A stretch of 62,610 bases of DNA, counting the filler, from Dugesia japonica (lineage: Eukaryota): the NCBI GenBank assembly GCA_001938525.1. It is 5 parts of 5 records of this genome, joined end to end, with 100 filler letters (N's around TTAATTAATTAA, not from the genome) between each part and the next. Parts side by side here need not be neighbours in the genome. Positions count along the whole stretch, not along the records: positions 48,526 to 62,610 come from MQRL01602986.1; 4 more parts are not named here. One strand, given 5' to 3'. The position numbers and the translations under genes were made by a program. This document shows positions 12,090 to 62,610 of the stretch, in pieces. How positions within the stretch are numbered: position 1 is the stretch's first letter; every line of letters begins with the position of its first letter. The notes beneath the pieces are model-generated. The model saw only the letters and a list, made by a program, of their open reading frames with translations. It had not been told where the DNA came from and made no database searches.

Positions 12090-12184
12090 ATTTTATCATC
12101 TATTTATTAAATTGAAAATTAGTAATTTTAGAAAGTGTTTGATCAAAGATGGTTATTTCAAAGATGGTGATCAAAGATTGATAT

Positions 12185-22853: not shown

Positions 22854-22905
22854 GGCACGGTGTTTTTCATATAAAATTATAAAAATATACGTCTATGTGT
22901 TTTAT

Positions 22906-25071: not shown

Positions 25072-25177
25072 GCTTAATACTCCATCAATAGATGGTAGTT
25101 AATTATATAGATATATATATATATGTATAAATAAAAATATAGATTTAAAATATTCAAATATACATTTTGGAAAGTGT

Positions 25178-25950: not shown

Positions 25951-25975
25951 TGAATTTTGTGATTGTGATCTGAGA

Positions 25976-32360: not shown

Positions 32361-32529
32361 TTTAAGTATATTTATTTAGTCTTGAATTAAAGTCCAACTT
32401 TCAAAATTTCATTTTTTCCAAAGTCTAACTTAAATTTTTTATATTTGCTAAAACGTCTGGATCCACTTTGTTGTCCACTTTGCTACCAGCCTTGTGATCT
32501 ACTTTGTGATCCAACTTGTGACTAATTTT

Positions 32530-33353
32530 TTATAATTTATTATAATGTTTAATCTTTTCAGATATCCAATTTAAATCATTTTGAAAATCGTACAATCTAG
32601 ACTTGTTTAATTTATTTTTCATTTCTAAAATTAATTCATTATCTGTTAAATGAGATTCTTCATTTCTTAAACTGGGATAGATTTTATAAACATATTTACC
32701 AGTCAAGTCTTGAAAAGAATTTTCAACTTGATAGTCGATTTCAGTAATTCCATCATTATTAAGATCATCATTCATTTTCTATACAAAAATTATTTAATAT
32801 TATTTGTTAAAATTTTAATACTTGATAAAAATACTCCTTTGGAAATCCATATTGAAAAATAAGTAATTTTTATTTTTGGTTTTATTTCTGTCTTTAATGA
32901 TTTTAAACCTGATGTAATTTCATTTGGTGATTGAACTTCTGATGATTTCATTGAAAATCTATATATTTTATTCTTTTTTGGTTCAAATATAAAATTTTTA
33001 AAAGATTCATTTGTTTTTAAAAAAATTTCAATATACTTGGTTTTGGGATATCCTATAAATTCAAAAAACAATTCACCTGGTTAGTTTGTTTCAAAATTTA
33101 TTTTTAATCTATCCAAGAGATGATAGTAATAATTCATTTCAATGATTTCCATTTTTCCTTTTCTTACAATTGATGAAATTTTTAAATAATCCTTGTTTAA
33201 TATGGTAATAACTGGTAAATTATTTAAAGGACTCATTGTTGATAAACTAAAGATTGTTTTGTTCAAATCTTTATCTTGAAAAGATGTAGGTTTATATGGA
33301 AAATAATTATTTACAAGTGATTTTAATTTAATCAACAACAGGTGAATAAACAT
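32530..33353 (-). CDS. Three small Polinton ORFs (truncated membrane-protein homolog 32530-32775; hypothetical 32790-33071; NYFP family 33081-33353)
   Basis: Homology and synteny with copies at 2005-2923 and 10330-11501. Confidence 0.65.
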
Positions 33354-33373
33354 TTTTTATCCAAATTTTCTTG

Positions 33374-34012
33374 TTACAATTTCTTGTAAATCTTGACAAC
33401 ACTAGTCAAATCAAAATGATTAGTTATTAAATTTATTCTACTCTTTAACTCTGGTAAAGGATCGTTTAAAGTTTGAAGATGATATTGTTCATGATATTCA
33501 AACTTGGCTTTCAACACATTTAATTCTTGATTAATCTTTTTTAAAACATCTGGTGAACAAGTACTTGAAATATTTTCAATTTTGGTTTTTAAATCTTTCA
33601 ACTGTTTTTTTATTTCACCATATTTTACATCATCATCATATTTTACATCATTCTTTATTTCACTTTTTAAATTATTAATTTTAACCAACAAGTCACTTTT
33701 TTCTTCAATAAACTTTTGTGAAATTTTTACATTTGCTTTTTCTAATTCTTGAATAGTGACTTGCTGTTTAATTAAAGTATTTTCTAGTTTTTTAATTTTT
33801 TTATCAACAAAAATATTTATATAATAATCAACATATTCTTTATTCACTACATCATGTTTATTAATCGGTTTTGTTTTTATTTGTAAATTTGAAACTGAAT
33901 CACCAGTTTTATTAACATATTTATCATCAATCATTTCCAATAAATTAGAAGTTCCCATTGAATCTAAAGTACTTCCAAATCTGTTCATTATTGAATTTGA
34001 AAATGTATGCAT
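33374..34012 (-). CDS. Polinton coiled-coil/fibre-like protein
   Basis: Intact 212-aa ORF with PINKHDVVNKEYVD motif and heptads. Confidence 0.65.
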   Translation of the reverse strand: MHTFSNSIMNRFGSTLDSMGTSNLLEMIDDKYVNKTGDSVSNLQIKTKPINKHDVVNKEYVDYYINIFVDKKIKKLENTLIKQQVTIQELEKANVKISQKFIEEKSDLLVKINNLKSEIKNDVKYDDDVKYGEIKKQLKDLKTKIENISSTCSPDVLKKINQELNVLKAKFEYHEQYHLQTLNDPLPELKSRINLITNHFDLTSVVKIYKKL

Positions 34013-34016
34013 TTAT

Positions 34017-34529
34017 TTAATACAGATTTTTATTCGATAATAATATTTTCAAAGTCTTTAGTTTGAACCATTCTTTAAATAATATAAATACACAAATCCT
34101 AGTTCCACAAGGCTGTACTTGATTTTTGTTTATTTCACATTTACTTTTCAATCCTAGTAATGTCAATAACTTTTCAACTGGTTTGATTAAAGGTAAGCCA
34201 AAAGAATCAAAATAAAAAGCTAAATTATTAAAGATTACAAGAGCAACCCAATGGCTTCCTTTTTGATTCGAATTTTGATAGTTTATTATGTAATTAATGG
34301 GAATTTTATAATTTTCTAAATCTTGTAAATTAGTCAACTCATTAGACATTACTACTTGGATATTTAAATTTAAAAAATCAGCAATTGTTAATAAATCAAA
34401 ATTAGTCATTGTTTGAATTCCAAAAGTCTTTAAAAAATCTAAAATGTTGTATTCACATTTTACATATACCATTTTTGTATGCGACATTTTGTATGTGTCA
34501 TTTTGTATGCGACATTTTGTATGTGTCAT
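34017..34529 (-). pseudogene. Adenain-like cysteine protease, C-terminus frameshifted
   Basis: GSHWVA, YFDSFG and QVQPCGTRIC. The 5' end overlaps a 14-nt CATTTTGTATGYG repeat (34470-34560). Confidence 0.9.
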
Positions 34530-34568
34530 TTTGTATGCGACATTTTGTATGTGTCATTTACATAAACA

Positions 34569-35240
34569 TCAATACCTTGATTTTCTAACATGAAGCAAAA
34601 CACTAATCTTTTCTCCATCAAAGCCAATTGGATCATAATTTTCATCTACTACATTTAATTTGATTCTAGAAATTGTATCTGTATTTAATTTTGAATAAAT
34701 TGGATNNNNNNNNNNNNNNNNNNNNNNNNNNNNNNNNNNNNNNNNNNNNNNNNNNNNNNNNNNNNNNNNNNNNNNNNNNNNNNNNNNNNNNNNNNNNNNN
34801 NNNNNNNNNNNNCATGTAATATTCATTGAATTTATATTTATAATATTTACTTTATTTAAAGATTCATATTTCCCTGGTTTGTATTCTTTAGCTTGAACTT
34901 CAAATCCCAAAACTAGATGAAAAAAACTAGACTTGTCAAATGTTAATTTATAATCTGTTTTTATTTCAATTACACTTTTGCCTGTAGAAACATTACAAGT
35001 TAATATAATTTCGGGCAACAACTTTTCAGCCAATTGTTTAATTTCATAAGAACCCAGTGTAATTGTTTTTTCAATATTATTTATTTTATACTTGTTGATT
35101 TTACTTGTAATGTTAAAAATCATGTTGTATGTAGAAAACCAAATTAAACCAATTTCATATTCNNNNNNTAATTTTAAAGCACTTGTTAAATTTAATTCCA
35201 AATTATTTTCATTACCAAAAATTAAAAATTGATGAGACAT
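34569..35240 (-). CDS. Polinton penton/minor capsid protein
   Basis: EYEIGLIWFSTYNMIFNIT...LGF...PIY...IKLNVVDENYDPIGFDGEKISVLLHVR. Confidence 0.85.
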   Translation of the reverse strand: MSHQFLIFGNENNLELNLTSALKLXXEYEIGLIWFSTYNMIFNITSKINKYKINNIEKTITLGSYEIKQLAEKLLPEIILTCNVSTGKSVIEIKTDYKLTFDKSSFFHLVLGFEVQAKEYKPGKYESLNKVNIININSMNITXXXXXXXXXXXXXXXXXXXXXXXXXXXXXXXXXXXXXPIYSKLNTDTISRIKLNVVDENYDPIGFDGEKISVLLHVRKSRY

Positions 35241-35244
35241 TTAT

Positions 35245-36112
35245 TAAATATTATATTTATCTTTTGTTATTAAATTTCTATTAAACAATTCATCAGTCAC
35301 ATTTTTAATATCCTTATCCAAATTTGTATGACCAGCTTTTTTAGCAGAAATTAATCTAGTCAAGTCTTCAAATAGTTTAATTGAATCTCCTTGGCGGGCT
35401 GCTTCAAATTTGTATTTAACATCTCCATATTTAACATCTCCATCTTCTTTTTTAATATTATTAATATTATTAAAATATTCATCAAAAGTTAAATCTTGTC
35501 TACATGCATTAAAATAATGTGATTTATAAAATTTAATACCAAATCCATTTAAATAAATTTCTCTAGCATTAACATCATTTGAACCATAACCAAAGATTAA
35601 ATTTAAAATTTCTTGATCGAATTTTATAAATTTATTTAAATGATGAACATAAAAATATTTAATCCNNNATCTTTTTCAACAAGAGATATATTAATGTTGT
35701 TTATTATAAAACTCTTTAATCTTTGATTTTTAATTACTTTAACTAAGTCTTCCATAGGAATTAAAGTTGGAGGAATTTGATACTTGTTTGTTATTTCTTT
35801 ATTTATAAAAAAAAATTCATATTCAACATTATCTATTATAATATATTCATTATCAACTTGTTTATCAAGTGGTTTGTCAATTTGTTTGTCAAGTGGTTTA
35901 TCAACTTGTTTTAAATCTTTAATTGCATTAATTAAGGGAGTCTGTTTAATAGTTTCATGTTGAATTAAATTTTCATAATCAGTTGTATTATTTGTAATTA
36001 AATTATCATATTTTTCTCGTGCACCAATTTGTTGTTTGATTAATTTTATTCTATCACTTAACCAATTGTCCATTTTTTTATAAACTTTTTTCAAGATCAT
36101 TATCATCATCAA
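35245..36112 (-). pseudogene. Conserved Polinton hypothetical protein
   Basis: C-terminal RLISAKKAGHTNLDKDIKNVTDEL resembles the LxxxxxAGN...I..I.DEL motif common upstream of Polinton penton genes. Frameshifted. Confidence 0.55.
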
Positions 36113-36615
36113 ATTTATAAGGTCTTAAATATATTCCATCTCTTAGTTTTTCTATTTTTAATGCTTGCTTTAAATTTTTAGTTTCCAACTTCTTGAAATG
36201 AGGATGATCCCTAAAACAAGAATATTTAAAATATTTATGAATAGCCGATCCTTGATATGGATTTAAATAGATTCCACCACCTTACTTAGAAATACTTTCT
36301 TGATTCATTAATTCAATTGTTTTTTCAATTTCTTCAATTTCCTTCTTTTTTTACTGCATCTCGTGAATTTGCAACTGCAGATGCAATTCCAGCGGTTGCA
36401 CCAACTACACCTGCAGTTGTACTTATGCCAGCAATTATTCCAGGAATTAAACCCAATAGTGGTAAAAATCCACCTTCTTTTTTATTTGAAAGTTTCTTTG
36501 AAAGTTCTTCTTTTACTCGTTTCCCTATCCAATAATTTTTCCCATTAATTGAAATTGATTTACACTTTTTGCTATTAATTAAATCTATTAAACCTTGTTC
36601 TGTGATGTTTGTCAT
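36100..36615 (-). pseudogene. Adenovirus pX/mu-like core protein
   Basis: KEGGFLPLLGLIPGIIAG...AGIASAV, followed by GGGIYLNPY and DGIYLRPY repeats after a frameshift. Confidence 0.75.
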
Positions 36616-36789
36616 TTTTTGAAATATAAAATTTAAATTGAAGATTCTAAAATGAGGGGAAAGACTACTACTAGTACAACTGTTAAAGTTATTACAACAA
36701 GTGGAACTACATCAAAACCTAAACCTAAACCTAAACCCATTTGTCACTGTAAATCTAATTGTAAATGTAATTGTAAAATTATTATTCTA

Positions 36790-42807: not shown

Positions 42808-43429
42808 GTAAGACTGATGATTGATGAAATTACAATTTATAAAAGATGTAGATTTTACAATATTGTTTTAGTAATATTTATTTTATATGTACAAACTTAA
42901 GCCAAATTTAAGTTTTACGTTACTCATCATAATTTTCGTGATACATTTTGATATTTTGTGTTTACTAAAATTAAAAGTTCTTAAATTATTCTTATGAAAA
43001 TCAAAGAAATAATAGAAATTATATAAAACCATATACTAATTAATATTATATTTCTTGAATTTTCTTTAAAAAAACCTTTATTTAAAAAATTAGTAAATAT
43101 TATGAAATCTTATAATTCTCTATACTTTGTTGAATAAAATAAAAAGTAATAATTTATATTTGTGTATTGAAGATTTTTTATATTAATATTATCCTTAATG
43201 CTATTGTTGAGATGCTGAAATCTTTTTTTATTGGATTGTCAAGAATGTCTTTTAATAAACAATATTGAATATTTTTTATTGCATTAATTGATGACATTCC
43301 AGTTCTTTAAATATTATGTGATTATTATTTTTCACAAAATTTATAAAAAGTTTATATTATGGAATAACACTATAATTAATCTCTTATAAAATGGAACCGA
43401 AGTTAGAACGATAAAGAATTAGTAAATAG

Positions 43430-44600
43430 TAATAGAATGTCTTTTGGCATTGATGCTGCTCCTTCGACTTTTCAAAATCTGATGTCGATAATTGTAGGTG
43501 ACATGATATGGAAAGAAGCTTTAGTTTATTTGGACGATATTTTAATTTTTTCCTAAACCATAGAAGATCATAAGATAAGAATAGAAAAACTATTTCAAAG
43601 AATAGATCATAGTAAATGTTTTGATTCAGATTCCTTTAGAAAAATGGCATTTAAATATAATTCTATTATTAAATATTCAAGTCCTTATCATCATCAGACA
43701 AATGAACAGATTGAAAGACAATTTCGAACAATAAGCTTGTAGTTTAAATGATAAACTATATAAAACATCGGAAGCAGCCTTATCTCACATAGAATTTTCA
43801 ATGAACTCAACCATTCAAAAAAGTATCAACTTTACACCAGCAAAAATTATATTTGGCAAAAGAATATTGAAAGAAAGATTTATTAGCACTAATGACGGAA
43901 ATATGGATGAAATAACTTATATAAAAAAGACAAATAATTTACGAGACAAAAATAAAAGCATTATAAATGCTAATAATAGGATAAATAGTTATGATAATGA
44001 GCGTAGAAGACATAGGGTATTGGTGATCGTGTGTTAATTTAAATGGATGTCCGAAATAAGCAGGATAATAGATTTAAAGGCCCATTTAGAATTATTAATA
44101 AATTACATGAAAATNNNNNNNNNNNNNNNNNNNNNNNNNNNNNNNNNNNNNNNNNNNNNNNNNNATGGATGTCCGAAATAAGCAGGATAATAGATTTAAA
44201 GGCCCATTTAGAATTATTAATAAATTACATGAAAATAGGCTAAAGCCAAATAAGGAGGGGGAATGTGATAATAAATTAATTAAAATTAAATTTATCATTT
44301 TATTACATAATACTATCAATTTTTTTTTGAAAACAAGGGTTAATAATTATTTAATATGTGGGTTTTGGTATGCATGTTTGATTTTAATATAAAATATAAT
44401 GCTTATTTAGAATGATGTGTTTATGAATGAGTATGTCCTCCATTACGAAATCATTAAAGATTTCCCCAAAATAAACCAGAAAAATTATGTCATTTAATAT
44501 AATTTTTACTAGCAATTATTTGTCTTCAAACAATAAGTAAATAAGAGTTTTAAATTTGTTGTAGATTCTTCTAGATAATTGCATAACTAAAAGCTCTCCG
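43430..44600 (+). mobile_element. Ty3/Gypsy relic in DAO intron 1
   Basis: RT APSTFQ...VYLDDILIFS, integrase SSPYHHQTN..IER, FKGPF. PPT AAGGAGGGGGAA then TGTGATAA (LTR start ~44264; right end approximate). Confidence 0.85.
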
Positions 44601-45208: not shown

Positions 45209-45640
45209 TTACATGTAAATAATTATGTTGCAGTGGTTGCATTCTGGATTAATCTTTGAAAGACAAACACGCAGCTCCTCGTCGATAATTTGAAGTCTCT
45301 CGCACTTCTTTGATTTCATTTCTGTGAGTGCTGAAAATCTGTTCTCACAAGGATAACACTTTCCAAATGGTAACAACAATTCTGTTGCTTTTTTGCTCAA
45401 TGGAGGAAATTTGTTGTTTAAAGATGTCCAAAATTTCGAAAGCCTTTTTTCAGCGAAGATTCTTTCAAAAACCAAATCAGTCTTTTAACCAATCTAGTTT
45501 TCTTCAAGTTTCTATTCAAGANNNNNNNNNNNNNNNNNTATCAGTTTCAAACTCTATGGGTTGATAAACTATTCCATTTCTGTTATGTCGATATTCGGAA
45601 AGTACTTGAGAAACAAAACTTCAAAAACGCTAGAAATTTT
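45209..45640 (-). mobile_element. hAT (Buster/Charlie-like) transposase C-terminal relic
   Basis: FW...FPPLSKKATELLLPF...YPCENRFSAL...K.K.RL...LRVCLSKINP dimerisation domain. Confidence 0.85.
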
Positions 45641-48525: not shown

Positions 48526-48528
48526 TTA

Positions 48529-48580
<52 letters not shown>

Positions 48581-48595
48581 CATTATTATTATTAT
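48526..48595. repeat. (ATT)n microsatellite
   Basis: Direct reading. Confidence 0.95.
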
Positions 48596-48901
48596 TTTTG
48601 GGTTTTTAAGATTTGTTTATTTCAATGCTCTTAATTTAAACCATCTCTGATTGACATCACTCTTGCTTTCAACCAATTGTCACATAATAAAGGGGCAACC
48701 TAAAAACCATAAGCGTTTGCGTCACCTGTGTGACAAATGGAATTATTCTGATTACGCACNGATTAAATAAATATTATTGCCACTCTACTTATACGATACT
48801 TTTACTGTTTTTGATTTTTGAATACAAAGTTTTTTTGCATAGTAACACCGTTACCATTTCCCACATATAATTTACAGTACTCTACATTTTGGCATCCATT
48901 G

Positions 48902-49417
48902 TCATACATTTCTCTCTTCTCCATACCACATCCTCTCACTAGTCTCGATAGTGTTCAGGATTGTGGATACGCTCGGTAATCGGTTAATTTGGGATAGAAT
49001 AAGTTCTGCATTATAAGTTTGTAACTCTTCTACTTGGTTTCTCAGTTTCTCTATGATTTTGTTAGTTCCGCTCAAGGTTTGTAGGTAGAAATTCTGATTC
49101 TCAGTAATCTGTCGTCTCTGATTCTCCACTATTTTATTCAATCTATGTAACTGCATCACATGGAAATTGTGATTCTCCACAAGGGTTGCATTTATTTGTC
49201 GAGTCTGTTGTAACTGTTCGTTCAATACCTTGGAGTTCATCATTACACCCCGGCAGTGTTCGTCCCATAAATTCTCCATTGCAAAATAAGGATTTAAAGG
49301 TTGATTAAGCAATTGGGTATAAGTTTGTACTGGTTCCTCCACAATTGTTCTGTCGACGTCGTCTAGATCCACATTTACTGGTAACTGCCCATTCATTGTT
49401 ATCCGTTTCTGATCCAT
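48902..49417 (-). CDS. Hypothetical coiled-coil protein (last cargo ORF)
   Basis: Intact 171-aa ATG-initiated ORF with Q/N/L-rich heptads. Confidence 0.65.
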   Translation of the reverse strand: MDQKRITMNGQLPVNVDLDDVDRTIVEEPVQTYTQLLNQPLNPYFAMENLWDEHCRGVMMNSKVLNEQLQQTRQINATLVENHNFHVMQLHRLNKIVENQRRQITENQNFYLQTLSGTNKIIEKLRNQVEELQTYNAELILSQINRLPSVSTILNTIETSERMWYGEERNV

Positions 49418-49589
49418 TTTACTAAATAAATACTACGATAAAAATACTACAGTGATCAATCCCAAAACAAATTTACAAATTACTCCATAATTTAATTACT
49501 TTACATTTCGAGCTACTCAAAAACTAAATTGTGTACCTTACTGTTAAATTTCAGGTAATTTATTTACAACTTTGCTCTCACTAACCTCC

Positions 49590-51360
49590 TCAATAACTCC
49601 ACAAAAACTCAGTTCCTCCCTCAGGAATTCCCGACCGCACCAACTCTCTTGGCGGGTGCAAATATTTCGCTATCAACTCTCTTAATTCTGGTTCCAATCG
49701 CAGTCTCGGATACTGCCCTCGTTTTGCCTTACAAATTAATATTGTTATAATCGTCATCAGAATTATCGTAATGACGCCCGCTACTCTACCACTGAATCCT
49801 GCTGACCAATTCCTTTCATTTTCCATTTTGCTTTGCTTCGTTGTTGCCTCATGCTTCAATCTAGCTTTTGCCGGAAATGTCCTTCGTGAACCGATCCTTA
49901 CCAGCTCTTTCATCAATTTGTCAATAAAATCCTCTTGTTGTCTATTTAAAATATTCGATGGCTTTCTAGTTGATTCACNNNNNNNNNNNNNNNNNNNNNN
50001 NNNNNNNNNNNNNNNNNNNNNNNNNNNNTCTGGTTCCAATCGCAGTCTCGGATACTGCCCTCGTTTTGCCTTACAAATTAATATTGTTATAATCGTCATC
50101 AGAATTATCGTAATGACGCCCGCTACTCTACCACTGAATCCTGCTGACCAATTCCTTTCATTTTCCATTTTGCTTTGCTTCGTTGTTGCCTCATGCNNNN
50201 NNNNNNNNNNNNNNNNNNNNNNNNNNNNNNNNNNNNNNNNNNNNNNNNNNNNNNNNNNNNNNNNNNNNNNNNNNNNNNNNNNNNNNNNNNNNNNNNNNNN
50301 NGGCTTTCTAGTTGATTCACTTTCAGTTGTCGTTTTCACATACCTCGTCATCGCATGGTTTCTCTTTTTGCTTCGTACACTGGTTTCCCCCGTGCTCCTC
50401 TTCATGATAGTTGATGTCGCCGTCGTTGTCGTTTTCGGATACACCATCTTCGTCAACCTCTTTGTTGTTGACTTGACCGTTGTCATCCTCAAGTAAGTTT
50501 TCGTTTTTGGTTTCCCTTTTGTCGTCGGTTCGATGGTTAGTGCCCTATTGCCCTGGGGCGTCTCGTCTACTAATATATATTCTAATTCTAACCATTCCCA
50601 TTTTTTCCGATTAAGTTTCATTATCATTTCGTGTTTATTACGGTTCCATCTATACTCTTGTAACACTCCGTCTTGCGTCCAATATGTGAACGATCGATAT
50701 TGCTTAATCCGAAACAACAATTTCTTTCTACGCGACACTTGGAACGTAACTTCTGCATCTTGGGGTGTCCTTTGATTCTCTTTATCTACTATACTCATTT
50801 TCATATCGATCATAGGCCACTCTCCGCTTCGGAAGGCGAAATGCTGTCCCCATACACCTGATGGAAACTGGTTCCATTGAGTTCCCGTCACACCCCGCGG
50901 TTCGATCTTCCAGACTTGCGAGATTTATCCCGCCCGTTTTCCCCGACATTTATCGTTGAATCCGAGCCAGGCTGGCTCATATCGGTCACGCGTATAATAG
51001 AGCACATGGATATAGTGGTAGTAATAAAACTAAACTCTCTGTGGGCTTCGAATAATCCCGAATCATGGCTGTAGGTAAGAAGTATGTCTTCATCCTCCAC
51101 CACACTCCACGGTCTTGGTTTGTATTGGACAATTCGAACTTGCTGTTTCTTACTACCTTTGATCTTGATGTCTAGAGACCAGGTGAATCTATAAAGGTCT
51201 ATTTTAGTCGATTAATATCTGGTTTTTAGCAGAGGTTCTAAATGTCATGTGTTCCCCATACTTGTCACTGTGACTCTTTCCAAACCTTTCCTTGAGATTG
51301 TTTGCACTTGCGTTTTATAAGTCATATAGATTCGATGTTCCGTATGAATATCCTCGTAAT
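49590..51360 (-). pseudogene. Membrane-protein cargo: beta-rich ectodomain, Thr-rich stalk, TM helix
   Basis: Frames 50888-51360 and 49590-50891. TT-rich stretch followed by VAGVITIILMTIITILIC-KAKR. Confidence 0.6.
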
Positions 51361-53859
51361 CATTACACTCTTCCCACTTGCTACTTTAAACACAATTAGT
51401 AATAATACTGCATACATCCACTTGTTCCATTGATTTGTTAACGGGCTCCCATTTCTCGGCATCTCGGGATCAGGCTGAACCTCCCACTGTAATTGCGCTT
51501 GATTATTCACGGTTATTACTAAGATTACGATTGTCACTGCGAATGCTAATGCCGCTATTACTGCCGTTAACAGTTTCCGATTATCGTTAATCGTCTGGTT
51601 CACTACAATGGTTGGTCCTGCTGACCAATCTCGTTCCATTCCTATCACTTCATATGCGATCAACGCCATTAGCACATATATCCATTTACTCATTAGCTTA
51701 GTTTGTCTATTTGCTCCACTGGACATCATGGATGACTCATTAAACTCATACAATTTTGTCACTTGTACGGTGGTTGGCCATGCTACCGCTGTTAGCATTA
51801 CTAACCAAAAAATAATTATTGATACAGATATCAATGCTAAGCAAGTCCATATTGTCCTCCGACACTTTCTCAGAACGGCCGGCTTGGTTTCATCTTTTAG
51901 ATCTCCCGATTCATTTTCGTAAATATGATCATGTGATTCAGATTTTATCATTGCGTAGACATAATTTCCTTCCGACGTGTTGTTCCCATTCGTGGGTGGT
52001 TCTGGTAGTGGAGTTCCTCTACTCGGTCCTTTAATCGTGGCTTGATCTATCATTAAGTTAGTTTCTCGTTCGATTATTTGATTCATTTTTGCTCCACACT
52101 CATATTGACTTGTTCCAACCTTTCTTTTCTCTTGTTTCTCTTGAATTACTCTAATCTCCTGCATTAACTCAGGTGTGATCGGCATCTCAAACAAGACATT
52201 GCCCTTGAGGTCCATCATTCCAATCACTACTATCTCGTCCTCGACTTTGTCATTATCTTTTGTGTCGCCCTCAGGAATCCCGCAAAAGGTAAACATTTCT
52301 GCTTACGTTAGCGTTTTAGTCTTCGTTTCTGGTTCCGTGGTTCCATGACATTTTTGCAATCGTTTGCACCCTTCTCCTTTCCTCGACTCCTGTTCTCGTT
52401 CTTGTTTGGCTCTACGCTGCAGCGCTTGTAGGTACAATTTTTTCATCGCTTCACTCTCTTCTGCCATCAATGGATGTGGATAAACATCTGCTATTCTCTG
52501 GTACTCGATTACCATATCTTCACTTCTTCTTAATCGCTCTTCGCAAGCTTGTTCGGTAAGCGATTTTCCGTTGTACGATTCTTCAATTTTTAAATATTCC
52601 TCTAGTTTTTTGTAGAGCGCACCGTATTCTCTTTTATACTTTTGTTCATGATACTTCTGGAGTTCTTGATCTGTCAGCCATCTCTCCATCTTATCCCCAT
52701 ACTGTATCGTGGGGAATTTTTTTCCTGGACGTTCTGTACACCATTTGCGTTTTCTCACTTGATAATACGCTTGCATTTCCAACTCTTTCTCTTTAGGTAT
52801 GTCCGTTCCACGACTCAATACTGTTTCTACTGTTAATAATATAGCAGCTTCTATTTCCTTATTTTTCTACTTTCTTTGTCGCTCCTCTTCTGACGTTGGC
52901 CGCTCTCCAGACCTCTTTTTATCATTATCCTCTGATACTTCAGGCTTTCCTTCCTCTTTATGTTTCTGGGCCCATTTTTGATAACATCTTTCACCGTACG
53001 CTTCAATCTTTTCTAACACGGCTGTTGGCACCTCCACCCTATCTTTACAATACGCTCTCATCATGGCTATCGTTGCGGAATTAAATATTTCGTCTTCCTC
53101 AGATTCGACCCTCTGACTATTCTCTGCTTCATACTTCTTTCGTTGTGTTAAAAACTCCTTACATACATCCTCCTTTAGTTTCGTGATTTTTGGTGTATCG
53201 CTCGGTTCTGCATGCAGTGGTCGTCCGCTAAATTCACAATAGTCCCTCATTTTGCTTTTTATCACTTCCTCTAGTGAATCGTAACCATTTTCACCGTTAT
53301 CGTTATCTGAATAAGAATCCATCACTTCCATAGTCGCACTTTGAACTTGCCGTCTGTTATTTTTATTTTTTCTGTTCCTCTTTCTCCGATTTCTACTTTT
53401 ATTCGATGTGCCAGGCAGATTTTTCAGTCTGCTGTTGTTTTCCTGTTGCAGTTACTTCCCTGCTTTTTGTTGAATCTCTTGTTTATCTTTCTCTAATTTC
53501 TCCACCACTTGTTTGAATGCCTGCACCCATTGTAACGCATTTTTCAATTGTTCTACTTCAGGCTCCCTTCGCCCGTCATTTTCTTTTATAAATTGTACCA
53601 TTTCTGCCATCCTTTTGGCTTGCTCCACTTTATATTCCGCATCGTTTAGTCGTCCTTCATACTTTTCTTGACGCTTGCTGTGGGCTTCCCACATAGTTTT
53701 CAATTTTTGTTTATTCTCCTCGGAGATAGTTAATTGAACGTTCTGTCTCTTCAAATTGTAGTCTGTTTTATTGCTCTCTCGCATCTCTTTCATTATTTGT
53801 TTTTTGTCAATTAATTCTTTGTGAATTCTCCGTATTTGCTCATTGAACAACAACTCCAA
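51322..53859 (-). pseudogene. Single reading frame broken by three in-frame stops: coiled coils, charged helical region, four hydrophobic helices
   Basis: ORFs 53452-53859, 52867-53331, 52303-52818 and 51322-52296 share one frame, and the linkers between them translate openly. Confidence 0.75.
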
Positions 53860-55700
53860 TCACTCCCCCCGTTTGAGAAATCGACGTCCTCGTCGATGCC
53901 CTCTGCCTGACTCTTAGTTCTACTCCACCGTTCCTTTGGTGTTATTGGTGTCAACGATTCTCCTTTAACTGGTATGGCTTGGCCTAGCTTTAACCATTTC
54001 CTGGCCTCGTGCAACACATTCATTGCCTCTTGCAATTGACCGCGCATATCGATTGCGCATTTCAAACACATTTCTTTGTATACCACTTCCAGCACGTGCA
54101 ACTCCACTTGAACTTTCTCGTTCACACAACTCACACAATATGCACTGTGCCACACTCCTGTTTCCAGTAACCATTGGCCTCTGCGTTCGACTTGTAATAA
54201 CGACCGTTTATTACTACGCTTCGTATTTCGGTAACATCTTTTACATAACTTCATGATATCCTTCTCAGTGATTGGGCATCTGGTCGGCTTCCATGCTCTA
54301 CATTTATTGCATACCGTCGATTCGATCTCATCGTTTTCCGTTGATGCCGGCTGATCCTTATAGATCCAAAACTCCTCATTCTTTGTAGTAACTATCTGAA
54401 CACCGGTCAGACTTGGTTGGCATAGCGGTCTCCATCCACTCTGAGGAATTAGTCCATTCATGTTATATCGTCCGCATCTTGGATTGTCGCATTTTCGATT
54501 TCCTTTCTTCCAGTCGTCCGTCACTGAAGAATAATATTGATTAAGCATGCCTCGTCTATTTTCATGAATATTTAATTGATCAGTTAATTTAAATTTTTGT
54601 AAGATTTCGTCATGAGTTAATTCTATATCTCGTCTAATAGGATTGGCCACTGTTGATCCTCTCATATGTACATGTAGGCACTCCAATTCATTGTCAATAA
54701 TTCCTTTAGGCAACCATTACACCATTGCTGATATAAATCAGCGTCTACTTTCAGTTTGAATGTTATTTCATTACACTGTTCAAAGGTGGAACTATAGGGT
54801 TCCTTTCTATCTTCTCGTAATGATTCTCGTTGGACACTTTTGTCCATCAATGTTAAGTTATCATAGCTCGATTGTAAACAGTGAAAACATGCTTGGCTCA
54901 TAAGCACTTTATTCAATGGCACTTTATTCAAAGATTTCGTACAGTGGCATATTTTACATCGCAAGACTAGATTCTCCTGATTGCATGTACTCGGATTGAC
55001 ATCTACCGCTTTGATAGCTTTCTCAGCTTTAATACTCCTGCTTAAGATAAACTGATCTTGCTTTTTGCTGGTAACTATTTGAATCACTAACAGACATGGC
55101 TTGCATATCTGCTTTTCCAGATTACGCACACGACCTTCTGGCTCGATGGATTGCCCACATAGTGGATTATTACATGTTCGACTCCCTTGAGTCACTCGTT
55201 CCTTTATAGACGAGTAATATTGTCTCAATATAGCACCGTCATTCTCACAGGTATCTGAATTATTAACTACCTCATATTGTTGTACAATCTCAGTCGGCGC
55301 TGGTTCTATATTCCATCGTACAGGATTTGCAGCTGTCAACACTTTTAAGTGTTTATGTATACACTTAATCTCTGTTGTAGCAATTCTTTGTGCGAAGCTC
55401 AAACAACTTCAGCACCACTGTTGGTATTCACTTGTTACACTTGGTAATTTAATCGATGTCCGACCACATAATTCGCATGATAATTTGTTCATAATAAACT
55501 TTCCTCTCCCTTGTTGGGTAGATTCCCGACTCAAATTCTCCACTAACTCTGCTACATCATCACACATAACCCGCTATCAATGATAACATGCTTTTTCAAT
55601 AAGCTCTTTGTTTAATGGCACCGAATCCGGTTTTGTTGCCACACAGAATATACACCACTTTTCTTGTTTAACACTTTCCTTTTCTTGAATTTCACCCTTA
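53811..55700 (-). pseudogene. Tandem Cys-rich (CxxC) repeat protein region
   Basis: ANP[VI]R..IE...L.QYYSS...G.R.C.NP.CG...C.P.L..[IV]QIVT.K shared by 54662-55402 and 53811-54713. A further partial copy lies at 55400-55660. Confidence 0.75.
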
Positions 55701-55848
55701 GTACTTTTGGTTTTACTGGTCTTCGTATTCATCATCATTATTTGTGTTCTGGATCTAATTGAGTATCAATCTTCCTCATTGATTAACTTCGTTTTGAAAC
55801 TCAGCCGCTTCTTAACTTTTGGTTTGACCTCCTCTTCATTCTCTTCTG

Positions 55849-57306
55849 CTATTGGCTTGTGGCTGCTATTGTTTCTTCCTCGCTACTTTTATCATTAGCT
55901 TCCTTCGTTGCTGCTAATTTACATCTTGATACATGAACAATACTTGGCTTCTTGAGTGGCTTTCCCACTTCCTTTACTTTTAGATTTGTTGCAGTTGTCT
56001 CTAACACTAAATAAGGTCCTTTATTTGGTCGTTTTNNNNNNNNNNNNNNNNNNNNNNNNNNNNNNNNNNNNNNNNNNNNNNNNNNNNNNNNNNNNNNNAA
56101 CGTATGAGGCTTTGTATCTCGATCATACAATTCCTTATAACGCTCTTGATTAAATTACGCATTTAGCGCTGCCAATCTCCATATTTCTTGCATTCTCTCT
56201 TTCATGCCGGTGACGTAATAATCCTTGTCCATGTATTGCGGTATTGGCGGCTGATGCTCTAAATCTATTGGCATATTACATTCTACACCATACATTAATT
56301 TAAAAGTTGACGCTTTTGTCGCGGGATGTTCTCCCATCCGATATGCAAATAAACATAAATTCAAATGTTTGTCCCAATCTCGCTGGGATTTCGTCGCATA
56401 ACTCGATAACATTCTAGTCAATGTCTGATTAAACCGCTCCGTCATTCTATCCGTTTGCGGATGATACGCCGATGTNCGTACTTTATGAATATTAAAATAA
56501 CTAGTCACTTCTTTCATTAATTCACTCATGAAATTCTTTCCTTGATCTGTCAATATCTTTTTCGGTGGGCCATATCGACTGAATAATTTATCTACTAATA
56601 CTCTTGCGATTGTTGACGCTTTTTGATCCTTTAATGCAAATGCCTCGGTAAATTTTGATTAATAATCCACTACTGTCAAGATATACGCTTTTCCACTGTC
56701 CGTTGGCGGGAATGGTCAGATTATATCCATTGCAATTATATCCATTGGTGCCGCTAGCACTGGTATTGGTTGTAACGCAACTTTAAATTTCTTTCCAGTT
56801 CCTTTTGTTGCCTCACAAATCTCGCATTTACTAATCCATTCTCTCACACATGTCGTAATATGAGGCCAATAATATTTTGCTCGTTATTTGGATTCAGTTT
56901 TCTTTGCTGACATATGACCTCCGAGAACTCCATTATGATATTGTTCAAGTATTCTTGCTCTTCTACATTTTGGTATTACCAGTAACAGTTGATCACCTTC
57001 CTTCTTCATTAACCATTCGTTTACCACAGTGTATCTACCACCTCGTTTCTTTAAATGTTTCTTCATCGCCTTGTTACACTCCATTTTACTTAAGTCAAAG
57101 TGAGCTATATATTCTAAGATTATTTTTACTTCCTCGTCTTCGTCCTGATCCTTTTTCAATCCGGTAAAATCTTTATTCTCTGCCAATATCATACATAGAG
57201 ATCGTATGTCTCGATTCATTAATTGTTGTAAGTCTATCCATTCACCTCTGGTTGATTTATTTTCTACCAATTCCTCTGGTTTGTCTGTAAATTTTGCTCT
57301 TGACAT
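55849..57306 (-). pseudogene. Ty3/Gypsy integrase (HHCC, DDE core, GPY domain)
   Basis: YHNGVLGGHM, YWP...C.IC, IAMDII, LTDQGKNF, TSAYHPQ..MTERFNQTL and KGPY; contains stops. Confidence 0.93.
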
Positions 57307-57404
57307 ATAATCTGCATTTGAATTTGCTTTTCCTGTTTTGTATTNNNNNNNNNNNNNNNNNNNNNNNNNNNNNNNNNNNNNNNNNNNNNNNNNNNNNNNN
57401 NNNN

Positions 57405-59220
57405 TTTTGTCCGATCATTGTTATCGGCTGATGATCTGTATAGATTACTAATGGATGTCCAAGTATTAACTGATTAAAGTGTTTTACAATTTTAATTACA
57501 ATGCTCAGTATGTCAACGTTTGGTAATTCGCTTGATTGGATTGTCAGTGATGCCCTCTTTTCTGACAAAGGCGCGAGATATTTGATTTGGCATTTATTCA
57601 ACGAAATCATTATATTTTCAGTTGTCCTTAAATAGAAATGAGGCCAAATTAGTTCGTTATATAAACGCATTCTCCGACTCTCTAACAACGTTATTACCAT
57701 AGTGGTTCCAGGTTTCAGACAGTATTCATAAATATGGGCATTTACATCATTGATGCTAACTACTGACACTGGTGTACAAACAATATATTCACCTATGGGA
57801 TTTGCCCATTCAACCTCCTCCAACGCATTGAGTAAATCCTTTACCGTCGTTCCTTTCAGTTTTAACACCCGTGGGATGTTACACTTGGTCGCCACTGGTA
57901 CTTTCTTCAAAACTTGATCCATCGTAATGTATGCAGTTCTATCCTCATCCGGTCTCCAGGATTCCATTGCTTTGATTTTATAATCCTCCACGGTTGTATT
58001 TCCTAACAACTCTTTCTCATACTCAAGAATTATTGGTCTCCACTTTTGATTGGTTATCAGGTCTATATGTCCTGGCTCCGCTAATTCAACCAAGTGATTC
58101 ATTAATTTCCAATAAGCCTTTCTGGTTAATTCATCTTTCAATAATTTAGCATCCTTTATGACTGTTTCTACATAATCATACACTCTTGTTTTGTATCTAA
58201 TCGGTGCTTTTGATCTCGCTGGATCGCTTTTGGTTATCATACTGATTTGAGCCACGGTATTTTCGGTTTTCGATGCTCCTCTTGTTTTCCGGGTCATTGG
58301 CTGTCTGATCTCCTTTACCACATCCGCCAGAAATCCCTGCTGTAATTTACTTATTCCTTTGGTTGTGGTTGTTGACTCCGTTTGTACTAACACCATGTAC
58401 TTGTGATATTTCTTTTCAAATGATTTTACTATTTGCTCAGTTGTTCTGAAATCAAAATAATACCANNNNNNNNNNNNNNNNNNNNNNNNNNNNNNNNNNN
58501 NNNNNNNNNNNNNNNAATGCGATGCATTTCTACTAAATCTATTAACTTTATTGTTGTTTTACCTGGCCAGACTCCATATTCCGATATATTTGCTTTAGCA
58601 TCACCTTGTTCTATCACTCTGGTTCGAGAACACAAAACATACTCTTTGATCGGCTTTGGCCATGCCAGTTCATTTACTGCTTGTAATAATCCACTTACAG
58701 TAGTATCGTTTAACACAATTTTCCTAGGTATATCTTGATATTTCATTTCAGTTGAATCTTCATCTATGACTCGCTCGTAAGCATTAATACTATAATCATC
58801 GGGTTTCGTGTGACTACGAATTTCCGATTCATAGTCCTGCGCCTGAGGAAACCACACTTCACTGGTGTACACATCTAATTCACCTGACTCCATTAACTCC
58901 AACACATGATTCATCATTGCCCAGTATTCTTCTTGGTAAACTACTGTCTTGAATGTTTGAATCATTGTAACTTTATCCTCCACTTGTCTCGTTATCACCG
59001 CTCTTTTTGCTGTTAATTGTGCTGGTAGTTCTACCTCCATTGGCTGAGCTTTCATGATATTTATTCGTCCTTGATTATTCTCTCGCTTTTGCATTCTCTC
59101 TCTAGCTACTTGTTGTTCTTCTAATTGCAACTGTAGATACTCCTGCTCTTGTTTCAATTTCTCAAATACTCGTTGCTCAGTTTCATCTTGCCTACGCCTA
59201 TCTTGTTGCATTAGATTCAC
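57405..59220 (-). CDS. Coiled coil + two tandem novel domains (ubiquitin/UBX-like C-half) fused to an RNase H C-terminal remnant
   Basis: Internal duplication YWxxMNHxxELxExG...IPR...TTVxxLLxAxxExxWxxPIxEYxxC...DxxAxIxEYxxxPGxT, then IVKHFNQLILGHPLVIYTDHQP. Confidence 0.7.
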
Positions 59221-59316
59221 TTGTTGTTGATTTTGGTTTCGATTATTTTTATCTGGTCCCTTAATTTATCGTTTTTGTCCATCATTTTCCCAATGGCCTG
59301 ATTGTTTCTCGATTTA

Positions 59317-60830
59317 TTATTGTAATTTGTATTCCCATATTTGTATTCCCAATTTGGGATTCCCATAGCCCGATCTTTGATTATTCTGGAAACAGTTCCT
59401 ACTCGCGTGACCTGGTTTATTGCATGTATAACACATGAGTGATTTTGTGATGAAGCAGTTCTCTGCTTTATGTCCTTGTTTCTGACAATTTGTACATATC
59501 ATTGCTGATCTGCAATCACTGGCATAGTGACCGAGTTTACCACAGTTATAGCAGGTAATTCCCTGTGGTTGCTGCAACGCTCCTTGTCTATTACCTCCAT
59601 TTGATCTTGTATTATTATTTGATTGTCGCGGTGGGGGTCTACTCTGACCTNNNNNNNNNNNNNNNNNNNNNNNNNNNNNNNNNNNNNNNNNNNNNNNNNN
59701 GGTCTACTCTGACCTGGTGACAGCCCTCTCAATAATGGTTGAGTTCTGGCAGGTATAAAATCTGCAATTTTCGGCTCGCTTTTCTTTTCCTCTTTTCGCT
59801 TTTCAATTTTAAAAACACTTACTTGCTTTTGATTCATTTCCACTTTATGTGCTACCATCGCCGCGTTTATTGCCATATCCACCGTTGTTGGTTGAGATAG
59901 ATTTACCCATTTTTTCACTTCTGCATTTCTAAGTCCTTTGATAAAAATACCGAGCACCGTTGGATCATCCAACTTATCTTTCATCACCAATTTGCCGAGT
60001 TTACGTAATTTTGTTGCGTATGCCTGAAAAGTTTCATTTCTTAGTTGTCTTCGACCAACGAACTCTTGAATCTCTTGTCCCTGCAACATTAATGGTTTGA
60101 AATTTTCTAATAATCCTTCCTTAGCTTTTCCCCAGGTATCAACGGGTTCTTTACAATTATTAATTTTATCCAAGTAAATAGTTTTAGCGGAATCCTTTAA
60201 AAATAGAGGTAATCGATCTGCTGGTCTCTTGTCACTCCATTGAAAGGTTTGTACATGTATCCCATATGCCGCAATAAAATCATTTAATTTCTCCGGTTGT
60301 CCGTTAAAATAATCTCCATTAAACTCCATTTTCCATTCCGAACTCCGTTTCGATTTCTGTTCACTTGTACTCTTGTCCTCGTCTGACGATTTCGAATTCT
60401 CCTCGTTGTCTTTTTCTTTACCGGGGGTTGACATGGTATCAGTATCACTTGATTCCGAACTTGATTCCGAATATTGTCGAATTCTACTTGACGCTCTTGT
60501 CGTAGGTATACTATCAGTAACTGATCTAGATTTGTAAAAACTTTCCAGATCAAGGTCTTCTACCGAATTGGCTCTTGAGTAATTTNGTTCNGTTATGNTA
60601 TCAAATTCTCCTTGTACGTCGTCGTTAGACGGGAACGAATTGGGTGATTTGGATGCTGAAATTGATAGAGATTGGTTGAATTGTCGAGACGGTCTATTGT
60701 AGGAGACCGATCGCTTTATTTTAGCTGAATTGGGTCGTTTAACTACAAATGACCTTCTATGTTCGGTACTTTCTCTAAAATTGTAGCGGGGTTCTTGATT
60801 ATCTATGATTGCTTATTTGCTTGGTTCATA
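59317..60830 (-). CDS. Gag with capsid-like domain and three CCHC zinc knuckles
   Basis: FNGQPE...LKDSAKTIY...RRQLRNETFQAYATKL...FIKGL; CYNCGKLGHYASDC, CTNCQKQGHKAENC, CYTCNKPGHASRNC. A Ser-rich N-terminal extension reads upstream of 60434. Confidence 0.92.
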
Positions 60831-61350
60831 GATTGATTGGTTTATCTCGAATTTTGGAATATTGGAATATTTTGGTTTCTGAAAATAAATAAGATGGCCC
60901 TACGGCTTCTGNACGCATTCAAATAGTATTATCGCATTNGTTAATTGACTACTTTTAACTACTTTTAACTACCAATTGATACTCCTAATAACCAATTACT
61001 ACACTACGAAACATTATCATACTTGATTTCTATCACTTTAGCAGCACATTTACGTAATTTACTTTTATTACTCATTAATTTATTATACATAAGCAGCAAT
61101 TTTATTTGTTTATGTCTATTGAAATACCCACTTCAATATTTACTGTTCTAGGACAGTTCCACTCAGATTAGTAATTCCAATTATAATTTTTATAGTTTAC
61201 AACTTACAACACTCATATACTTAATTGTCTGGTAATTTTCAGATGTGCCTTTGACACATTACTCCAATAAACTCCATCAATTCATTTCATCTACTTGTAA
61301 CTGATTTCTCCTTTATTCCGTAATGCATTTTTTTTCTTTCACTGCTGATA

Positions 61351-62085
61351 GAAAATTTCCGCCTGCTCCTGGCAAACCTTTTCAATGAAAGCTCTTTAAT
61401 TTACTGAAAGCCTCAAATATTTCACCATAAAATTTGCTTAAATCCTTAATTTCACTTTTACCCAACATTTCGCATTGAAACATTTCCGCCTGTTCATGGC
61501 AATTTGTCTTCCTGTCAAATTTTCTTAATTGATCAATACCCACTTTATCTCCATCTCATTTTCCTTAACGGAACAATCCAGCCTGTCCCTGGCAATTTAT
61601 CTTCCAAATAACTTTTATACTAATTGATGATTAATTCATTCCGACTTCATATCTCATGTTGGGACAAACCCACCTGCCCTGGTAGTTTATCCTCCGGATA
61701 AACTTTTAATATCAATTAACACTTCTTTTGTTTCAACTCCTTTTTGACATGGAAACATTCCCGCCTGTTCCTGGCAGTTTATACCCCTGATAAACTTTTA
61801 TTATCCCTTTACATTTGCTGCATCCTAACTTTATTTTCACATGGGTACAATTTCGCCTGTCCTGGCAGTTTATACCCTTGATAAACTTTCACAACTAATC
61901 AATGATTCGATTATCTTCCTTTAACTTGTCCATTCATAGAACTATTTACTCAATTTTTCCACGATTCATTTCGCTTTAACTCATCTCAATATCTAATTTG
62001 TCGGTTATACCTCTCCCTTCATCACTTCACATTAGTACTCCTCAATATCTACAATGGAACTCTTGCGCCGATCCCTGGAAAATTT
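61351..62085. repeat. Array of ~7 units with a conserved GCCTGTYCCTGGCARTTTAT core
   Basis: Cores at 61361, 61488, 61581, 61672, 61763, 61855 and a degenerate one at 62067. Confidence 0.85.
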
Positions 62086-62610
62086 CCTTGTGAAATTTTA
62101 TAAGTTCAAAGTTCTGCCTGCATAATAATTATCAATAAACCTCTCCCCAACTTATTTATTTTAACCACACACTCGGGCAGTTTTCATTACTTCTCCAAAC
62201 TTAACTATACCCTCGGATAGTTTTATTATTTCTCTCACTTAAACTATACGCTTAGATAGTTTTATTATTTCCGACCAGATCTTCCTTAGTACTCTTCTCG
62301 GTGGCCAACCGACAAAGTATCCGGAACGAATTACTGGTAATTAACTCACTACTCCAATATTTGTTTCAATATCTTTCATTTAGTTCTGTTATCATTTTCC
62401 TCCAAAAAATTTCAATCTTTTTCATACTAGTTTATTTGCTTTGAACACTCTCTCTATACAGCCGGTAGTCTATTTTTTCAGCTCCAGCTGGGCGACAATT
62501 TCGATCCTCAACTAACAATAATGCTTTAATCTCTCACTACTTGAGTCAGTTGACAGTCTATTTCGATTCAGCTCCAACCGCTCGCTAATGTGAAGGTTCT
62601 CAGTCAGGAT

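Follow-up and report, generated by a model that had tools for sequence, protein, structure and literature searches.

Most envelope-position genes described in animal Gypsy elements code for fusogens of F or gB type, for short ORF3s or for small proteins of FAST-like type. A locus of Dugesia japonica raises the question of what else such an element may carry behind its integrase, and whether it does so as one polyprotein or as several genes. This locus occupies positions 48,526 to 62,610 (MQRL01602986.1, assembly GCA_001938525.1) of the window, the 62,610 nt stretch that we analysed, which joins 5 records whose neighbouring parts are not necessarily neighbours in the genome. On the minus strand, which carries all features given below, we read gag, three zinc knuckles, a duplicated domain, half of an RNase H, an integrase and ~1,970 more codons, with no spacers between them. 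On balance, we regard the locus as a single cargo-laden element that derives from Gypsy and has decayed. This element is at least 14 kb in size, the examined cargo region being its 3′ half, and it is described from a single damaged copy on a gappy scaffold.

Pfam identifies gag at 59499..60812 (Retrotrans_gag PF03732, E 1e-8) and three stretches of CCHC zinc knuckles at 59370..59640 (PF00098, E 2e-16). These are followed by two copies of a ~220-aa domain without known match, the first (58394..59091) crossing a 50-N gap and the second (57575..58270) occupying the usual place of protease (PR) and reverse transcriptase (RT). The copies share 33% identity (E 2e-29), and the alignment carries on past the gap, with 0 of 5,000 shuffles as good. 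A ubiquitin-like fold, proposed by eye from a motif, found no support in searches, and an ESM Atlas query with this domain returned dynein-type rows below 0.9. Copy 2 joins, in frame and gap-free, an RNase H remnant (57298..57508) comprising the C-terminal half only (profile positions 82-152 of 153). The N-terminal half went undetected, 200 of 1,000 shuffles scoring equally, and a degenerate version suggested by a by-eye motif was dropped, as no search supported it. Neither an aspartic protease (Pfam and an 8-sequence profile) nor a reverse transcriptase (Pfam and profile searches) was found in the element. The same PR profile detects a PR remnant at 15759-15610; outside the element but within the window, RT and PR profiles match remnants with E values of 2e-18 and 9e-4, and the N gaps are so positioned that an RT beside RNase H cannot be concealed. 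The first-pass annotation had taken the host element for an ordinary Ty3/Gypsy, which the absence of PR and RT contradicts.

Downstream of RNase H sits an integrase of Gypsy type according to Pfam, profile and tree (55918..56982). It keeps its H2C2 finger and all three positions of the DDE core, presumably ends in a GPY/F-type domain (a label read off the sequence), and is damaged by 4 stops in 476 codons. Its best match, the database protein P0003 (40% identity), is an uninterrupted RT-RH-IN protein that runs on into a hydrophobic segment, an ectodomain and a transmembrane (TM) segment. With PR and RT missing and the H2C2 and DDE positions kept, the locus might be taken for a Gypsy-derived, RT-free DNA transposon whose integrase acts as transposase, along the lines proposed for Ginger1, which likewise combines a Gypsy-type integrase and a C-terminal extension with the absence of RT (PMC2836005). 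We consider this most improbable, as the locus keeps gag, with its three knuckles for RNA binding, and part of an RNase H, Pfam finds no OTU or Ulp1 match, and the visible end shows no terminal inverted repeat in the window, the 5′ end lying outside it. Ginger1 measures 2.6-7 kb, has terminal inverted repeats, a transposase of 500-800 aa, domains of OTU or Ulp1 type and no gag, and places its integrase-like region N-terminally, whereas ~1,100 codons including gag precede the integrase here (PMC2836005).

We judge it about even whether the whole family lacks PR and RT or this copy alone lost them by deletion. Decayed element copies often carry internal deletions, and a single event may here have removed PR, RT and one half of RNase H from an autonomous Burro-scale Gypsy parent of at least 4,100 codons, a reading to which we give slightly less than even weight. 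P0003, with ~560 residues preceding the part that matches the element's RNase H, fits such a parent, as do the long gag-to-PR inserts known in Burro (PMC6431247) and P0101. Against it, RNase H is read in frame across the junction, for which a random deletion gives an expectation of 1/3, and no long protein was found with both the integrase and the extra domains; the latter is weak evidence, from a word search that used a single frame (59265-51325) and in which 8 of 3,244 candidates (1,455-4,633 aa) matched, in the integrase only. A single deletion would leave the reading of the cargo as it is. As a family trait, the loss would imply a large coding element that persists without its own polymerase, and a copy without PR and RT could move only via a helper's enzymes. 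We think it rather unlikely that a multi-copy family of 14-kb satellites dispensed with PR and RT while retaining gag, integrase and a polyprotein of 3,550 aa that ends in a non-fusogen surface protein. If true, the family would depend on helpers, carry cargo and derive from an undescribed clade of Gypsy elements in which the integrase is joined to an envelope-position protein of a new type that may serve cell-to-cell targeting.

The first-pass annotation had reported ~7 kb of coding sequence running on past the integrase without a spacer, through an acidic linker, Cys-rich repeats, coiled coils, a multi-TM segment and a Thr-rich TM protein. We confirm the region and this succession, reading the stretch of the putative coiled coils as a charged region without a Pfam match; the length shrinks to ~6.6 kb once a 342-nt assembly duplication is removed. 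The reading path (55851-49590, ~1,970 codons) contains 9 stops and 5 frame changes. Its core is the series of four adjoining ORFs noted earlier (53859-53452, 53451-52867, 52866-52303 and 52302-51322), which share one frame, separated by single stops: 3 stops in 845 codons, vs 84 and 68 in the remaining frames and always at least 37 in the best of three frames of 2,000 base shuffles. The other single stops lie at 55768, 55579, 55576, 55411, 51247 and 51214. Neighbouring ORFs are indeed linked by frameshifts, the one suspected earlier being located near 53865 and four others mapped near 55850, 54700, 51325 and 50900. A codon model from gag-pol scores the coding frame best in 5 of 7 cargo segments, but favours a different one in part of the ectodomain (51319-50900) and, by a narrow margin, in the last ORF.

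Stops per 1,000 codons number 8.4 in the integrase and 4.6 in the cargo (p=0.30), and all lesions 3.8 from gag to integrase and 7.1 in the cargo (p=0.26). For 4 of the 14 cargo breaks a sibling repeat offers a test, ten having none: the stops at 55579, 55576 and 55411 align with sense codons of repeat 2, and the frame shift at 54700 falls where repeat 1 reads continuously. Because the integrase is equally damaged and these four breaks are open in the sibling repeat, most breaks are probably the decay of one ORF. It is likely that gag through to the membrane anchor formerly made up a single ORF of ~3,550 codons, its stops and shifts arising by decay or assembly errors. From gag to RNase H there are 0 stops in ~1,100 codons vs 13 in 2,450 downstream (p=0.013), an imbalance that may reflect chimeric assembly or an uneven history.

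The cargo might otherwise be several accessory genes in their own right, whose expression would depend on splicing, readthrough or programmed frameshifting in the style of complex retroviruses. An ATG does lie 2 codons past the stops at 55576 and 52305, and the last ORF is intact and separate (48902..49417; 171 aa, own ATG at 49417, stop at 48902), following the long path after a 172-nt spacer and giving weak coiled-coil-type matches only. Bdelloid ORF3s, too, are typically separate spliced units (PMC5408684). The remaining cargo has no spacers, four of its breaks interrupt repeat units, its lesion rate resembles that of the integrase, and P0003 is one ORF, fused in frame; these features support the giant polyprotein extension first suggested and make separate genes improbable. 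The additional suggestion of a virus-like accessory-gene region, understood as several separate genes, fits the last ORF only.

Within the long path, an acidic/basic linker (55700..55851; ORF reading, Pfam), with the frame change at the integrase junction, leads into a Cys/His-rich unit of ~230 aa that self-comparison resolves into ~2.5 tandem copies with 11 CxxC motifs (53960..55699). The second halves of the units are 35% identical (E 3e-22), the first halves score 106 vs 27.7±4.8 when shuffled, and the partial third unit is equalled by 7 of 500 shuffles. Judged from these repeats, the cargo is partly expanded through tandem duplication, and the units are probably zinc-binding. Next comes a charged region (51900..53868; frame analysis), probably helical and interrupted by 3 in-frame stops, which has no match in Pfam, PHROG or NCBIfam. 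The cargo domains had been called unrecognizable, and per-domain library and structure searches leave them so: none of the cargo pieces has a recognized domain in Pfam, PHROGs, NCBIfam or PDB sequences, AlphaFold models reach pLDDT 38 and 47, and fold searches give nothing above background (best Z 4.1, and in one search 7.2, helical). The best PDB sequence match, a cellobiose epimerase over a charged helical stretch (E 0.005), was taken as chance. Searches for relatives in GTDB genomes, for Rfam families and for tRNA found none.

That no domain links retroelements with the 1,500 codons in the middle of the cargo would suit the capture of a host gene, or an insertion that is unrelated to the dead integrase beside it, as would four-fold third positions slightly off those of gag-pol (G 0.30 vs 0.22, the window holding no host gene as reference). 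This explanation is nonetheless very unlikely. The purine bias of the strand and a GC content of 34-45% are constant from gag to 49000 (GC is 15% beyond 48600), the coding path has no intron-sized break, phmmer finds no relative of a 367-aa Cys-rich region among 1.84 billion representatives, and relatives of the element bear a similar terminal module.

Ahead of the ectodomain of this terminal module stand four hydrophobic segments (51379..51840; hydropathy), which form two copies of a long TM segment plus a short segment read by eye as a signal peptide; 2 of 1,000 shuffles match unit 1 to unit 2 as well, a result that composition may inflate. The predicted ectodomain that follows (50550..51378; 2 stops, 2 frame changes) is beta-rich and nearly Cys-free, with 1 Cys and no R-x-K/R-R site; part of it was modelled as all-beta, at low confidence (pLDDT 47), and its two pieces are not repeats of each other (174 of 500 shuffles as good). 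Together with a Thr/Lys-rich stalk (49790..50549; 28% Thr) it measures ~400 aa. A single TM helix (49784-49728; hydropathy 2.5) and a basic cytoplasmic tail (49590..49784) end the long coding path, and resemble the anchor and tail of P0003 (1 of 500 shuffles as good, in composition-biased sequence). Inside the stalk, an assembly duplication occupies 49979-50301 (repeat comparison): between two N gaps, 50029-50196 is a 100% copy of 49687-49854, and the bases preceding the first gap reappear after the second, so that 342 nt and an apparent second TM segment are an assembly artefact. The ectodomain matches nothing in the ESM Atlas and no fusogen in Pfam or PDB sequences. A CUB-like fold for it and fibronectin-III-like motifs in the branch ectodomains, both by-eye readings of motifs, gained no support, the former from searches and the latter from sequence or PDB searches.

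The integrase tree unites the element and P0003 with a second remnant in the window (26750-25980) in a single branch (SH-aLRT 99, in a quick search without bootstrap on 55 of 108 rows, the remnant covering 48% of columns). By hydropathy, the integrase of all three is followed by a hydrophobic segment, an ectodomain, a stalk and a membrane anchor, which are in frame with it in P0003 and, in the remnant, in another frame with their own ATG. Of the 106 database relatives that match in the integrase, just 3 show such a signal-plus-anchor layout behind it, and 4 have any TM segment there; a word search with the P0003 tail recovered only P0003 itself among 1,750 candidates (833-2,652 aa). The shared module is recognized by layout and position, because the ectodomains show no significant similarity to one another (71-404 of 500 shuffles as good). 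P0003 resembles the element in the beta-rich character of its ectodomain and in its basic tail. It differs in being intact, with RT and full RNase H, and its extension is ~450 aa vs ~1,970 in the element; the two ectodomains cannot be aligned. We consider it quite likely that the C-terminal module (signal-like segment, ectodomain, stalk, TM segment and basic tail) is the integrase-fused membrane protein of this lineage, and that ~1,500 element-specific codons were gathered between it and the integrase, partly by tandem duplication.

The novelty is below that first implied, as giant Gypsy polyproteins and extra ORFs are already published (PMC6431247, PMC5408684, PMC11963269). The planarian Burro/GYPSM1 elements encode single polyproteins of 4,873 and 5,140 aa and occur as decayed fragments in a related host; they share with our element a huge polyprotein (here a probable one, of 3,550 codons on a broken path, vs 4-5 thousand aa), three CCHC knuckles, many extra domains, an in-frame membrane protein and tandem repeats (PMC6431247). 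Burro has PR-RT-RH-IN, whereas PR and RT are missing here, and its viral-fusion-protein-like env lies between gag and pol, whereas our cargo follows the integrase and hydropathy finds no TM segment between gag and pol. The BIR, MATH, BCL2 and ankyrin motifs of Burro (PMC6431247), and SUMO-like motifs, have no Pfam match in this decayed sequence. In Ty3/gypsy errantiviruses with F and HSV/gB env (PMC13524379), too, an ectodomain flanked by a signal-like segment and a TM anchor is found downstream of pol, but our element has 1,500 additional codons upstream of the ectodomain and no R-x-K/R-R. The env-like regions of P0047, P0096 and P0101 have 17-18 Cys, and the predicted one-cysteine ectodomain is different from F/gB envelopes. 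Behind pol, bdelloid LTR elements also carry cargo other than env, including TM and coiled-coil ORFs, and the non-autonomous TelKA2n has lost most of pol and kept an env-like ORF; their ORF3s are short (~210-600 aa) and separate, and TelKA2n has also lost the gag C-terminus (PMC5408684). Plant Retand elements have a pol-to-3′LTR region of 2.9-6.6 kb, tandem repeats and some non-autonomous members, but their extra ORFs are antisense, whereas our cargo is sense and continuous with the integrase (PMC11963269). The sORF2/FAST-like fusogens are short TM proteins of small ORFs (PMC11952523), unlike the ~400 aa of predicted ectodomain and stalk here. No PR/RT-less giant element with such a layout was described in the open-licence papers and bioRxiv searched.

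Tentatively, we propose that a full-length RNA would be translated as a single polyprotein, anchored at the ER by its internal hydrophobic segments, from which host signal peptidase would free a type I surface protein, while the zinc-binding and charged cytosolic modules might serve particle assembly or host interaction. These functions of the cargo we only infer; for the surface protein, attachment or membrane targeting is more likely than a classical fusogen role. Within one branch of the integrase tree, three members carry a type I membrane protein poor in Cys at this position, which points to another class of envelope-position protein, of which P0003 is an intact natural member open to study. 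The weight of this is limited by the one decayed copy; if further copies confirm one ORF, a Burro-scale polyprotein would have been built at the opposite end, after the integrase, by tandem duplication.

Upstream of gag, repeat and composition analysis delimits a 5′ non-coding region (60813..62610) with tandem repeats of ~92 bp (61479-61889) and 39 bp (62161-62271). Because the element's composition runs on to the window edge, its 5′ end or LTR lies outside the window; a repeat search found no second LTR copy within it, the 3′ end being cut by a gap. The candidate 3′ end (48526..48922) opens with a purine tract (48922-48909) followed by TG, a single PPT-like tract, and continues with AATAAA at 48621 and (TAA)n at 48596-48526, up to the scaffold gap.

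On the minus strand, a coding path can be followed from the integrase end at 55851 to 49590, and it yields a cargo of ~1,970 codons with nine stops and five frame changes, as expected from the proposal in the first-pass annotation that coding runs on past integrase. Its claim that four ORFs from 53859 to 51322 adjoin in a single frame is likewise borne out, with only three stops in 845 codons. The other two frames over the same codons contain 84 and 68 stops, and across 2,000 shuffled versions even the most open frame had at least 37. The separate ORF reported after the cargo is also real, being intact, 171 aa long and 172 nt beyond the cargo end. For the region as a whole, the observation of novel coding sequence stands and its interpretation stands in part, but 342 nt of the membrane gene are a false duplication. 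Positions 50029-50196 duplicate 49687-49854 exactly and are flanked by two N gaps with repeated junction bases; this copy accounts for a false second transmembrane (TM) segment and for the 342 nt excess.

Short duplications across 50-N gaps, of the artefact type seen at 49979-50301, also occur at 59651-59700 (15 nt) and 44043-44236 (72 nt). The 100-bp gaps at 8524, 27702, 37173 and 48426 each consist of 44 N, a 12-base palindrome with stops in all frames, and 44 N, and because of these palindromes the top inverted-repeat matches in the window are artefacts.

The integrase carries four stops in 476 codons and must once have been continuous; its stop rate is not different from that of the cargo (p = 0.30). 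A Cys/His-rich unit present in ~2.5 copies permits a sibling-repeat check of 4 of the 14 cargo breaks. Unit 1 lies in a single frame, and three stops in it align to sense codons of unit 2; unit 2 in turn changes frame near 54700 where unit 1 is unbroken. As all four breaks align to open sequence in the sibling unit, they are lesions or assembly errors. From gag to the membrane anchor the coding sequence sums to ~3,550 codons. Over ~1,100 codons from gag to RNase H there are no stops (p = 0.013 versus the rest of the element) and, by reading, about two frame changes. This lack of stops counts against so simple a picture, and a chimeric scaffold is possible.

The earlier annotation had recognised none of the cargo domains, and searches of Pfam, PHROGs, NCBIfam and PDB sequences likewise returned no match. 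The Cys-rich region had no relative in an exhaustive search, word searches and the ESM Atlas did not recognise the cargo, and structure models of low confidence gave no recognisable identity. Eleven CxxC motifs in the sequence suggest putative zinc binding. Duplication is frequent in the element, affecting the pre-integrase domain (two copies), the Cys-rich unit (2.5 copies) and a hydrophobic pair (two copies), and the 5′ region contains tandem repeats. Composition and codon bias are continuous (no host gene was compared), and we argue that the cargo evolved long inside the element rather than by fresh capture from the host.

Pfam matches in the element comprise gag, three CCHC knuckles, an RNase H fragment and integrase (56982-55918). 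Profiles for reverse transcriptase (RT), protease (PR) and RNase H were built from database matches, with two other Gypsy remnants of the window (14000-15760 and 43425-44236) as positive controls. The RT and PR profiles detected nothing in the element, yet picked up remnants in other parts of the window (E 2e-18 and 9e-4, respectively), and RNase H is represented only by profile positions 82-152 of 153. Between gag and this half RNase H lie two copies, 33% identical, of an unrecognised domain. The gap at 58466 interrupts copy 1, but the alignment between the two copies resumes past it, and copy 2 continues in frame and gapless into the RNase H remnant; RT is therefore not concealed beside RNase H. 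The in-frame junction favours absence of PR and RT as a family trait over deletion in a single copy, although only threefold. The element thus differs from an ordinary Gypsy. In the duplicated domain the last ~80 aa (57650-57889 and 58516-58740, minus strand) resemble a ubiquitin-like fold by eye, but searches gave this no support.

Among 98 long integrase matches the best, at 40% identity, is the database protein P0003, an uninterrupted RT-RNase H-integrase protein followed by a hydrophobic segment, a 220-aa ectodomain, a stalk, a TM segment and a basic tail. The same post-integrase layout occurs in a second Gypsy remnant of the window (integrase pieces at 26750-25980, minus strand), where the membrane ORF is out of frame with integrase and starts at an ATG of its own. 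A quick maximum-likelihood tree, made without bootstrap from 55 of the 108 available integrases, joins the element, the second remnant and P0003 in one branch (SH-aLRT 99). The element's last hydrophobic segment, beta-rich region, Thr-rich stalk, TM segment and basic tail fit the P0003 layout, and ~1,500 extra codons precede this terminal module. The three ectodomains show no significant alignment to one another; what the branch members have in common is thus architecture and position, homology not being shown. Integrase is also fused in frame to a membrane protein in two more distant matches, P0047 and P0096. The ectodomains of these two and the env-like region of P0101 contain 17-18 cysteines versus one in the element's ectodomain, which by look is therefore unlike an F- or gB-type fusogen. 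P0047 and P0096 are long Gypsy polyproteins with a Cys-rich env-like protein in frame after integrase, P0101 is another with a fusion-glycoprotein match between gag and protease, and P0105 and P0107 are Gypsy polyproteins of ~4,000 aa with ~2,800 residues before RT (shown for P0105).

The element extends on the minus strand from beyond 62610 to ~48600, the cargo region being its 3′ half. It is 30-45% GC with a purine-rich coding strand throughout, and GC falls to 15% past 48600. Outside the element the window is AT-rich, with mostly 15-35% GC, and its gapped scaffold DNA is full of the remains of mobile elements, including Polinton-like pieces and at least three Gypsy remnants. This content and the named integrase matches point to eukaryotic, probably animal, DNA. 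The search for a 3′ LTR past 48902 yielded a candidate start, but neither an LTR pair nor TIRs were found within the window. At 48922-48907 a purine tract runs into TG; this site, the sole one of its kind between 49900 and 48500, may mark the start of a 3′ LTR, and downstream are AATAAA at 48621 and then (TAA)n reaching the scaffold gap.

Cargo-laden Gypsy elements are known. Burro encodes polyproteins of 4,873-5,140 aa with env in frame, placed between gag and a full pol (PMC6431247), whereas here the cargo follows integrase and PR and RT are absent. Bdelloid elements have diverse short ORF3s and one family lacks most of pol (PMC5408684), Retand elements carry antisense ORFs in a long stretch between pol and the LTR (PMC11963269), errantivirus env is of F or gB type (PMC13524379) and sORF2 proteins are short (PMC11952523). 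Ginger1 lacks RT and gag and has TIRs (PMC2836005), whereas this element lacks RT and has gag. It departs from the definitions of all six groups and of autonomous Ty3/Gypsy elements, and 'Gypsy-derived element' is the most fitting name for it. Our literature search, which covered open-licence papers and bioRxiv, found no fitting description. What is surprising is that size, a position after integrase, absent PR and RT, and a non-canonical membrane protein in a layout common to three clade members come together; the surprise is lessened by the known cargo-laden elements and by reliance on one decayed copy.

We envisage that full-length RNA would be translated into a single polyprotein anchored in the ER via its hydrophobic segments, from which signal peptidase would free a type I surface protein. 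Modules on the cytosolic side might act in assembly or host interaction, and the last ORF would have its own translation start. Any copy that lacks PR and RT would rely on a helper, and the present copy is dead because of the four stops in integrase.

The second remnant region (21929-26900, minus strand) combines an integrase of the same branch with downstream minus-strand ORFs and may be another cargo-rich member of this clade. After integrase come a signal-ectodomain-stalk-TM ORF (25941-25180), an ORF resembling a DEDD-type exonuclease by eye (24849-23673; no Pfam or NCBIfam match), an acidic ORF and one encoding a RING finger (22892-22263; Pfam E 8e-9). Its integrase is truncated 5′ by a GC-rich stretch and 11-48-bp tandem repeat arrays (26790-27700, minus strand); 26834-26985 is 72% similar to 16040-16182. 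Further Gypsy remnants lie at 14000-15760 (minus) and 43425-44236 (plus), with PR, RNase H and integrase pieces and RT pieces; in the former, most of RT is seemingly absent between 15232 and RNase H. By eye, a short ORF at 45209-45484 (minus) resembles a hAT/Buster transposase C-terminus. At least two diverged Polinton/adintovirus-like remnants (220-1844, plus; 8040-13800 and 29947-36711, minus) contain DNA polymerase-like pieces and protease-like ORFs, both recognised by eye, repeats ~21-22 kb apart, a weak endonuclease VII-like match and an Adeno_PX match at 36334-36711 (minus, E 3e-4).
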